Shown piece by piece: positions 14,019 through 15,638 of a stretch of 64,000 bases of DNA. A model generated the notes under the pieces. It was not told the origin of the DNA. It was given only the letters and a program-made list of their open reading frames with translations, and ran no database searches. Where the stretch lies: assembly GCA_903847915.1 (NCBI GenBank), contig CAINEW010000022.1, positions 1,268 through 65,267 of the forward strand, given 5' to 3'. The DNA comes from an uncultured bacterium (GTDB taxonomy: Bacteria; Patescibacteriota; Minisyncoccia; UBA6257; GWB1-50-10). A program made the position numbers and the translations under genes. How positions within the stretch are numbered: the stretch's first letter is position 1; every line of letters starts with the position of its first letter.

Positions 14019-15638
14019 ATGAAACATCTTTTGGTATTTTTGATGCTTTTTATGGGTGTCACTCTCAACGCACAGTGGGTTTCAGATCCCACCGTGAATA
14101 CTCCACTTGTGACAGGTAATTATGATGAGTTCTCGCCTATCATGGTTCCGTGCGCAGGAGGGTTTTATGTCGTGTACAAGAGAGATAATTTTCTTGTCCC
14201 CGCATATTTCGTTCAAAGATTTAATGTGTTGGGTTATCCGTGTTGGCAAGCGCCGATACGGATTATAGACACACTCTACGAACAGGATGATAACGCCGTG
14301 GCGTTCTCTGATGGAAAGCAAGGTGTCGTAATCGGCATGGGAGTGTGGCTAGATCGCGAACGGATTATTGCGCAACGTATTGATTCAAACGGCGCACGTC
14401 GCTTTGGCAATAATGGCACACTACTTTGCACCGCATCATCTACACAAAAAAATCCGGAAGGCATCATTCTTGATGACTCTCTCATTTTTTTCGCATGGGA
14501 AGATTATCGTGCGAGTGAAAATGATGTGTACGGTGCAATGCTTGATATGAACGGCAATCTCAAATGGTCATCTTCCGGCAAGGCGCTATGCACTGCAGGA
14601 GGAACACAAAGAGATATCGCACTCGCACGCGGGAACAATTCAATTATTCTTGTGTGGCGCGACGAACGTTCGTCTGCTCCTGGTATCTACGCACAAAGAG
14701 TTTCTGCAGAAGGAACGACGATGTGGCAGATAAACGGAAATAAAGTGGGGCTTGATTACAATCCTTACAATGTACATGTTCTTGCGACCACATTTGGAAT
14801 CTATATCGGATGGACGGGAATCACCGATTTCGGTTCGTATCCCGATATACGATTCAGAAAAACAACATGGAATGGAGATACGCTTTTAGAAAGGCGTTTT
14901 GTGACTCACGGCGTGCAAAAGAATATTCAATTCTTTTTTGTGCCGGACAGTACTTTGCGATTCCTCGCGTTGTACGAACAAAATGATTCTCTAATGGCAG
15001 GATCGTTCTATGACGATACGGTGACGCAATTACATTCGTCATTACTCGTAAAGCAAAGTGAACCGCATTACGCGTTCGCGCGAAGCGATACGGCGCTTAC
15101 GGTGGTATGGGAAGATACGCGATTTGGAGGAAAAGATATCTATGGACAATCGTTCAATTTATTTTCATTACAACGATTATGGGAGCAAGGTGGTGTGCCA
15201 ATTTCCTTACGAAGTGGCAACCAAACAAACCCAGCAATCGTGCCAATAGAAAATGGATATGTGGTAGTATTTCAAACGCCAACCAATCTTCAGTCCGATA
15301 TTTATGGTCAAAAACTAAATCAGGACGGAACGTTGGGTATGATAACAAATGTGAATGGTGAAGAAAATAAACCACGTACATCTGAATTATTGCAAAATTA
15401 TCCGAATCCATTCAATCCCATCACTACCATTCACTATGTCCTCCCCCGCACCACATTTGTCACACTTAAGGTGTTTAATGTGATAGGTCAGGAAGTAGCG
15501 ACGTTGGTACGCGAGCAAAAAGAGTCAGGAAATCAGAGTGTAGTATTTGATGCCTCACTCCTTACTTCCGGAATCTATTATTATTGTTTAAGCACTGATT
15601 ATTTCACCGAAACCAAAAAAATGGTGCTGGTGAAATAA
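14019..15638 (+). CDS. secreted beta-propeller-repeat protein with T9SS type-A C-terminal sorting domain
   Basis: Signal peptide [19 protein letters not shown]. Five or six repeats of roughly VxWxDxRxxxxxIYAQR...G (PD40/TolB-like). The C-terminus [41 protein letters not shown] matches the Por_Secre_tail consensus. Confidence 0.7.
   Translation: [539 protein letters not shown]

Follow-up and report, generated by a model that had tools for sequence, protein, structure and literature searches.

How does a gene whose product ends in a type IX secretion system (T9SS) sorting domain come to lie in what looks like a genome of the Candidate Phyla Radiation (CPR)? The question was raised by an open reading frame (ORF) at positions 14019-15638 of a 64,000-nucleotide (nt) stretch of DNA from an uncultured bacterium (contig CAINEW010000022.1); the whole stretch is here called the window, and the ORF the target gene. 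A preliminary description, made from the letters alone, had reported a beta-propeller protein with such a domain in a CPR-like context, and had wondered whether it could be sorted without the dedicated machinery, whether the domain was used differently or whether the gene had been acquired horizontally. The T9SS is confined to the Fibrobacteres-Chlorobi-Bacteroidetes (FCB) superphylum and relies on about 20 dedicated proteins as well as a translocon in the outer membrane (PMC12398890, PMC8754138). In our judgement the target gene is probably, though far from certainly, a resident of a Paceibacteria-type CPR genome and a horizontally acquired FCB T9SS cargo gene, whose product would be exported by Sec and whose C-terminal domain (CTD) would be a passive leftover. 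The last of the three options was favoured because homologues of the target were found only in FCB-type or other non-CPR contexts, and the gene was absent from the same site in a Paceibacterota relative (contig L092).

FCB-type features of the encoded protein

The target gene was present exactly where it had been described (Table 1), and a profile search, proposed at the outset as a check on the sorting domain, placed it above threshold: the C-terminus scored 41.1 bits with NCBIfam TIGR04183 (Por_Secre_tail; curated cut-off 23) and 37.9 bits with Pfam PF18962 (curated cut-off 27), both over residues 461-536 and hence ending three residues short of the stop codon. The type B signal (CHU_C) gave a noise-level match only. 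Type A CTDs are defined as compact immunoglobulin-like (Ig-like) beta-sandwiches of seven strands (PMC11285876). The target was aligned with 49 full-length homologues (50 sequences in all), and the AlphaFold2 model built on that alignment had a mean predicted local distance difference test score (pLDDT) of 85.7 and a predicted template modelling score of 0.77. It contained a beta-sandwich from about residue 461, with six strands assigned by DSSP (468-475, 479-486, 492-501, 504-511, 518-525 and 530-537), and a two-residue strand near 456-457 may be the seventh. Over residues 471-530 of this domain the mean pLDDT of ten-residue blocks was 91-97, falling to 88 at the end. A weak sequence match (E = 0.014) was also found to the solved chain 8glj_D, a "Por secretion system C-terminal sorting domain".

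At the opposite end of the protein the n-region is charged, the core hydrophobic and the residue at position -1 small; the model has a helix at residues 2-12, and a predicted signal peptidase I cut after Ala18 would leave an N-terminal Gln. Just before the invariant W20, 40 of the 50 family members have Q, and at the position preceding that one 48 have A or S. The A|Q-W junction of the target, common to 80% of the family, fits the Bacteroidetes Q-rule, by which the new N-terminus made by signal peptidase I is a glutamine (PMC5837995). With a Q-rule junction at one end and a T9SS CTD at the other, the predicted protein bears FCB-type hallmarks at both.

Between them lies a propeller. The preliminary description had counted five or six blades; the model instead showed eight four-stranded groups between residues 28 and 434. 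The alignment of 50 revealed a family plan consisting of a signal peptide, eight repeats of about 53 amino acids (aa) and a CTD starting QNYPNPFNP, and the target likewise has eight repeats of that length, forming an eight-bladed propeller. The family repeat consensus is SDGxGGAIIxWxDxRxGxxxDIYAQRI...G...W..NGV..C.....Q..P.I, and in the target blades 1, 5 and 6 are without its W.D.R....DIYAQR motif.

Table 1 Coordinates of the target gene, its parts and its neighbours in the window.
Feature	Position	Strand	Remarks
Target coding sequence	14019..15638	+	Complete, 539 aa: signal peptide, eight-bladed beta-propeller, linker, T9SS type A CTD
Sec signal peptide	14019..14072	+	Residues 1-18; predicted signal peptidase I site A18|Q19, by inspection
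Eight-bladed beta-propeller	14076..15320	+	Residues 20-434
Flexible linker	15321..15398	+	Residues 435-460; pLDDT <50 at 443-450 (AlphaFold2)
T9SS type A CTD	15399..15635	+	Residues 461-539; begins YPNPFNP, ends TKKMVLVK
Site of 1-nt deletion (C)	14327	+	In contigs L095 and L096; ORF broken after residue 103
Sigma-70-type promoter	13932..13961	+	-35 TTGACA 13932-13937, 18-nt spacer, extended -10 TGcTATAAT 13953-13961 (TG 13953-13954, TATAAT 13956-13961)
Intrinsic terminator	15658..15690	+	12-nt-arm hairpin (AAAAAGCTGTCA / TGGCAGCTTTTT) at 15658-15687, then T-run
glmS, CPR type	12084..13907	+	Linked to target in five assemblies
tRNA-Val(tac)	12002..12076	+	ARAGORN, Rfam; left landmark of the islet; glmS starts 8 nt after
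RNaseH-like gene (PF04308)	15718..16236	+	Pfam E = 6.8e-43; right landmark; 60% identical to L092 orthologue

The CPR contig and the linkage of the target gene to glmS

The window encodes GyrA, FtsH, GlmS, RecA, FtsK, NusA, a membrane pyrophosphatase, a short IF-2 and ClpP, together with five aminoacyl-tRNA synthetases, 13 tRNAs and many small hypothetical proteins. GyrA had hundreds of relatives at 67-74% identity, and the named ones were Paceibacterota, Jorgensenbacteria, Minisyncoccia and Brennerbacteria, with a sole exception labelled Chloroflexi. The window shares a block of about 12 genes in the same order with the contigs encoding the closest GyrA (L092, L093 and L094, Paceibacterota): type IV secretion system (T4SS) pilins, SBP, GyrA, a small ORF, Lactamase_B, S1, FtsH, tRNA-Ile, tRNA-Val, the RNaseH-like gene, an exonuclease, RecA, HTH_25 and FtsK. 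The RecA, FtsK and FtsH proteins were 81%, 75% and 71% identical, respectively, to those of Paceibacterota contigs. These affinities, the synteny and the pilins of family PF18895 bear out the CPR context first noticed, and the contig, which might have come from an FCB genome, was placed by GyrA and synteny within the Patescibacteria. The sequence evidence supports its assignment to a Paceibacteria-type genome, and not to a diderm of the FCB superphylum, the host expected of T9SS cargo. The pilins belong to a cluster at 856-3259 (reverse strand) of small proteins with a signal peptide and two transmembrane segments, two of which match T4SS_pilin (PF18895); the cluster includes a 377-aa protein fusing a CarboxypepD_reg domain to a pilin-like C-terminus, and it is kept next to SBP-GyrA in L092-L094 as well.

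No T9SS component (SprA/Sov, PorV, PorU, PorK/L/M/N or GldK/L/M/N) was found among the window's 58 ORFs. With a hidden Markov model (HMM) of the family CTD, the target remained the only CTD protein of the window, and some 220 kb of CPR loci yielded no match at all; the same HMM did find CTD genes in loci of Ignavibacteria, Melioribacteraceae, Cloacimonadota and Krumholzibacteria. It seems to us extremely improbable, for these reasons, that this CPR lineage possesses an unrecognised envelope and secretion apparatus by which its own cells truly sort proteins through the CTD. Such an apparatus would explain why the CTD is intact, which is the only observation speaking for it, but T9SS organisms encode many CTD proteins and not one, and homology of the Patescibacteria T4SS to monoderm conjugation machinery has been reported (10.1101/2025.01.22.634366).

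We then considered whether the target gene is joined to CPR DNA at all. An identical 539-aa protein was found on four other metagenome contigs from different European Nucleotide Archive analyses, ERZ1426820 and ERZ1426664 among them, always directly after glmS, and in two of the four FtsH also lay upstream. Compared at the level of genes, two 5.8-kb contigs had FtsH, glmS and the target in the window's order, with its gene lengths and spacing. All four contigs broke off precisely with the target's stop codon (15638); one contig began exactly at 12897, inside glmS, and another was the same as the window from 12897 onward, with 20 mismatches in the 32 preceding bases (an unrelated glmS 5' sequence). 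The 2.7-kb block 12897-15638 has, in consequence, sharp assembly-graph edges and is common to at least two genomic backgrounds. An imperfect 18-nt inverted repeat (83% complementary) at 15598-15639 covers the last codons and the stop of the target, ending where the other contigs terminate.

Not FCB but CPR GlmS sequences were closest (57-62% identity) to the glmS half contained in this block, and in a neighbour-joining tree (no bootstrap) the whole GlmS fell in a CPR-dominated cluster, apart from the clades of Ignavibacteria, Cloacimonadota and Bacteroidota. Because both the half within the shared block and the whole protein are of CPR type, the target gene is, on this sequence evidence, physically joined to a CPR-type gene, and the join does not appear to be an assembly artefact. 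GlmS was also tried as a taxonomic marker in a genome collection and was set aside as uninformative, its best match being only 56% identical and its matches a mix of CPR and FCB genomes. In the contig of ERZ1426664, glmS was called as two ORFs (127 and 478 aa), and it may be disrupted in some strains or the split may be an assembly error.

The sharp branching at both ends of 12897-15638, with four contigs ending at the stop codon, is what could be expected from a chimeric assembly or a binning contaminant running through an FCB fragment, in which case the gene would not be the CPR's own; Ignavibacteria, moreover, often carry a CTD gene beside glmS. Nevertheless, the block holds the 3' half of a CPR-type and not an FCB-type glmS, the same three-gene arrangement recurs in the two 5.8-kb contigs, the source contig (65.6 kb) extends on both sides into Paceibacterota-syntenic genes and the GC content is flat across the junctions of the target. 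We regard a chimera or contaminant as very improbable, and the branch points at 12897 and 15638 are more likely to stem from a block shared between strains or species that differ around it.

Origin of the gene and the state of its sorting domain

A search among 5.8 billion proteins returned 2661 homologues of the target. Homology within the family extended over the full length (E values from 1e-76 to 1e-36, 93-100% coverage, 23-34% identity), the best full-length homologue being 33-34% identical by alignment, and the named ones came from Ignavibacteriae, Bacteroidales, Eisenbacteria and Zixibacteria. Since the common words of the CTD could crowd the candidate list, the propeller repeats were searched for separately; in this search full-length identity did not go beyond 28%, none of the matches had a CPR label, and the named ones were from Krumholzibacteria, Eisenbacteria, Poribacteria and a few others. 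The four homologue contexts inspected were all non-CPR: one had five consecutive CTD genes, and the others contained TrkA/TrkH, SelO, an ECF sigma factor with a Ser/Thr kinase, and deoxyhypusine synthase or radical SAM genes. A single-protein scan of Joint Genome Institute metagenomes gave full-length relatives at 29% identity or less, together with hundreds of unrelated proteins whose CTDs were mostly 45-61% identical to that of the target. Two or more CTD genes were present in 23 of the 37 loci of at least 8 kb with similar CTDs, and the loci with the most similar CTDs contained 143 CTD ORFs in 660 kb. One apparent link to the CPR, the homologue P0077 on the same contig as a CPR GyrA (P0240), was rejected, as the two come from different samples. 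In Ignavibacteria/Melioribacteraceae, a CTD protein of about 1900 aa is encoded directly upstream of glmS (L038 3947-9739, L039 4166-9946, L051 336-5999 and L058 4129-9852); the glmS-CTD neighbourhood recurs, therefore, in a candidate donor group, but in the order opposite to that of the window.

Comparison with L092 located the variable segment. In this relative the tRNA-Ile/tRNA-Val pair is followed by a terminator, about 250 nt and then directly the RNaseH-like gene, and neither glmS nor the target occurs anywhere in its 22-kb locus. Relative to L092, the window has an apparent 3.6-kb insertion comprising glmS and the target. The two genes need not have arrived together, since glmS is CPR-type and the target FCB-type. 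About 170 nt after its tRNA-Val (5598-5670), at about 5425-5445 (reverse strand), L092 repeats 17 nt of the 3' end of that tRNA (CACCCTCAGCGCCCACA), which looks like an integration or excision scar at the site where the window has glmS and the target. The window itself contains tRNA debris at 11600-12080: an exact 23-nt duplicate of the tRNA-Val leader and 5' end (11875-11897 = 11991-12013), a repeat flanking tRNA-Ile (11630-11669 and 11781-11820, the last 23 nt identical) and a tRNA-like 3' fragment near 11825-11855. Farther downstream, about 900 nt of AT-rich sequence (16859-17730) separating the exonuclease gene from recA contain only doubtful ORFs (93 and 109 aa) where L092 has folD, a second indel in the same variable neighbourhood.

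Several observations weigh against horizontal acquisition followed by disuse of the CTD. First, the difference from L092 could formally also reflect loss of glmS and the target in the L092 lineage instead of gain in the window. Second, no integrase (11.5-17.8 kb), att repeat or other mobile-element signature was found flanking the target, and the window has no second copy of the tRNA-Val 3' end, just duplicated tRNA 5' fragments upstream, so that the integrase and tRNA 3'-end direct repeat of a genomic island integrated at a tRNA gene are lacking here. Third, the composition of the target is unremarkable (GC 0.433 versus 0.417 ± 0.04 for the window; z = 0.39, 0.54 and -0.78 for GC, GC3 and codon usage, respectively). 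The comparison of codon usage with the neighbouring genes, proposed in the preliminary description, consequently revealed no mark of foreignness; the one unusual measure was the dinucleotide signature (98.7th percentile among windows of equal size), in which the FtsH region was just as extreme. Composition cannot date the transfer, however, because many of the candidate donor loci have a GC content of 0.32-0.39. Two other ORFs of the window, 37652-38269 and 26312-26728 (GC 0.26 and 0.31 versus a window mean of 0.42; no Pfam match), are by composition stronger candidates than the target for foreign or fast-evolving genes. Fourth, no donor was identified, nothing exceeding 34% identity among the 5.8 billion proteins.

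The fifth point concerns the CTD itself. HMMs of the propeller and of the CTD were trained on 25 other family members and used to score 25 held-out sequences. The CTD of the target obtained 104.5 bits, a mid-range value (rank 14 out of 25), whereas its propeller, with 221.5 bits, was the lowest of the 25 (287-578 bits for the rest). A domain that had long been useless would not be expected to stay canonical beside the most divergent body. Either the transfer was recent and came from a lineage, not yet sampled, in which the propeller had diverged beforehand, or the CTD is being kept by something.

Among the things that might keep it, we considered that the CTD works on a host: the Sec-exported propeller would dock through its CTD on the surface PorV/PorU of an FCB host, as an adhesin or ligated to the host surface. 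In addition to the asymmetry of the scores, this would agree with the identities, since unrelated cargo proteins have CTDs 50-61% identical to that of the target, and the body is at most 28-34% identical to any family member, as well as with a lifestyle, CPR bacteria being described as obligate epibionts in the report already cited (10.1101/2025.01.22.634366) and Bacteroidota being among the more frequent inferred donors of their genes (PMC12455944). If so, the CTD would be kept by selection and would tether the parasite to, or decorate, the surface of a Bacteroidota- or Ignavibacteria-like host. We consider this improbable. It would be without precedent, the frameshifted allele described below indicates that the gene can be lost, and an ordinary family member (P0105) is similarly asymmetric (287 bits for the body and 110 for the CTD), for which reason the asymmetry is no proof of CPR-specific selection on the CTD. 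In a weaker version, the target would be a fossil of a host-to-symbiont transfer, naming the host group of this Paceibacteria lineage.

Signals for expression lie on both sides of the target gene. The promoter, initially described as near-perfect, matched the consensus at 12 out of 12 positions, with the additional TG of an extended -10 element, and was the sole perfect TTGACA-18-TATAAT in the 64-kb window (chance expectation 0.05; 5 of 100 shuffled sequences had one). Twenty bases past the stop codon lies the terminator hairpin, with a folding energy of -17.2 kcal/mol (z = -6.13), equalled in stability by none of 200 shuffles. With its own consensus promoter and its own terminator, the target gene is a predicted self-contained transcription unit. 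The strength of the Shine-Dalgarno sequence was dropped as an argument for adaptation to the host, as a core of at least 4 nt is present in just 19 of the 58 window genes.

Two contigs from other assemblies (L095 and L096) were 100% identical to the window over 1.3-1.7 kb save for the C deletion at 14327. The deletion is probably a real variant, since the position is not a homopolymer, although L095 and L096 may be re-assemblies of one sample. The intact and frameshifted alleles occur in neighbouring BioSamples (SAMEA6872876 and SAMEA6872877, respectively), the intact one also in three or four other assemblies. Given the frameshifted allele, the gene is apparently dispensable in at least part of the population.

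This raises the question of whether the gene does anything. As a functionless, decaying passenger it would have come in a recent transfer from an unsampled FCB lineage and would be transcribed by chance behind a good promoter, without benefit to the cell. The frameshift, the adjoining glmS that is split in one assembly too and the absence of the target from every other CPR contig found are all consistent with this; too little time for decay would explain the canonical CTD, and the similar GC content of candidate donors means that the missing GC anomaly is no argument against recency. We nonetheless hold it to be rather unlikely, although the most serious of the alternatives. The intact allele is the one found in most assemblies (five contigs), the two frameshifted contigs may derive from the same reads, the 539-codon ORF is open and its product is confidently predicted to fold as a complete propeller, codon usage is already host-like, and the gene is served by a terminator of its own and by a promoter that has no equally perfect counterpart in the 64 kb.

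We accordingly return to the reading set out at the beginning, in which the target would be an FCB-group T9SS cargo gene that was acquired horizontally and now lies with glmS in a 3.6-kb variable islet downstream of tRNA-Val. T9SS cargo crosses the cytoplasmic membrane first, by Sec, and in the CPR cell the pre-protein would likewise leave through Sec, with signal peptidase I cutting it after Ala18. Neither an outer membrane nor a T9SS is known from CPR cells, so in such a cell the CTD could be neither an outer-membrane translocation signal nor the substrate of a PorU-type sortase. The mature protein outside the cell would retain it as a passive Ig-like appendage, and the propeller would act, if at all, as an extracellular or surface-associated binding module. 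Transfer of genes from Bacteroidota to Patescibacteria has been documented, Bacteroidota being among the more frequent inferred donors (PMC12455944).

Full-text searches found no literature linking T9SS sorting domains to CPR bacteria. The locus is a clean and well-supported example of T9SS cargo of FCB type encoded by a CPR bacterium, an unusual recipient of a known type of gene, and it calls for caution in annotation, as a match to TIGR04183 does not imply a T9SS. It also offers a natural experiment on a secretion signal after the loss of its machinery, in which intact and frameshifted alleles are both seen, and a testable clue that this Paceibacteria lineage lives near, or on, FCB-group bacteria.

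Comparison with known systems

In structure-based comparisons the target resembled the eight-bladed BamB, NirF/NirN and the designed Ika8, which at 8-12% sequence identity is a likeness of fold only and uninformative on function. PorZ of Porphyromonas gingivalis (5m11), from the T9SS attachment complex, is likewise a propeller followed by a CTD (Foldseek E = 5.6e-7); at 10% sequence identity the likeness is one of architecture, with no sign of orthology or of a role in the T9SS. PorZ has been described with two propellers.

The closest relationship is with an unnamed FCB family of DIYAQR-repeat propellers with a CTD, about 560 aa long, whose members are labelled 'T9SS type A sorting domain-containing protein', 'Cell surface protein' or 'beta propeller repeat protein', the named ones belonging to Ignavibacteriae, Eisenbacteria, Krumholzibacteria and Zixibacteria. 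The target shares with this family its full-length homology, length, eight-repeat plan, W20 and YPNPFNP, and differs from it in having the most divergent body tested (221 versus 287-578 bits), three motif-less blades and no more than 34% identity to any member. The order of its parts, namely a Sec signal peptide with an A|Q junction, the cargo, a linker and an Ig-like CTD of about 80 aa, is also that of T9SS type A cargo such as P. gingivalis RgpB and the cargo of F. johnsoniae, including the CTD of 8glj_D. By domain criteria the predicted protein is a T9SS type A CTD cargo and a divergent member of the unnamed family. Unlike the type A cargo of FCB phyla, however, it is encoded by a Patescibacteria genome, in a window without a T9SS gene or a second CTD protein, and at the level of the organism it fails as a working T9SS substrate, its host not being FCB and the machinery not being in the window.

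As an event, the presumed acquisition is best compared with the documented transfers from Bacteroidota and Omnitrophota to Patescibacteria (PMC12455944). It stands apart from them in that the target brings along a secretion signal for which the recipient should have no machinery, and in that no donor closer than 34% identity is sampled; as in those transfers, a single foreign gene lies in a small variable region of a streamlined genome, and the donor phylum would come from the FCB group.

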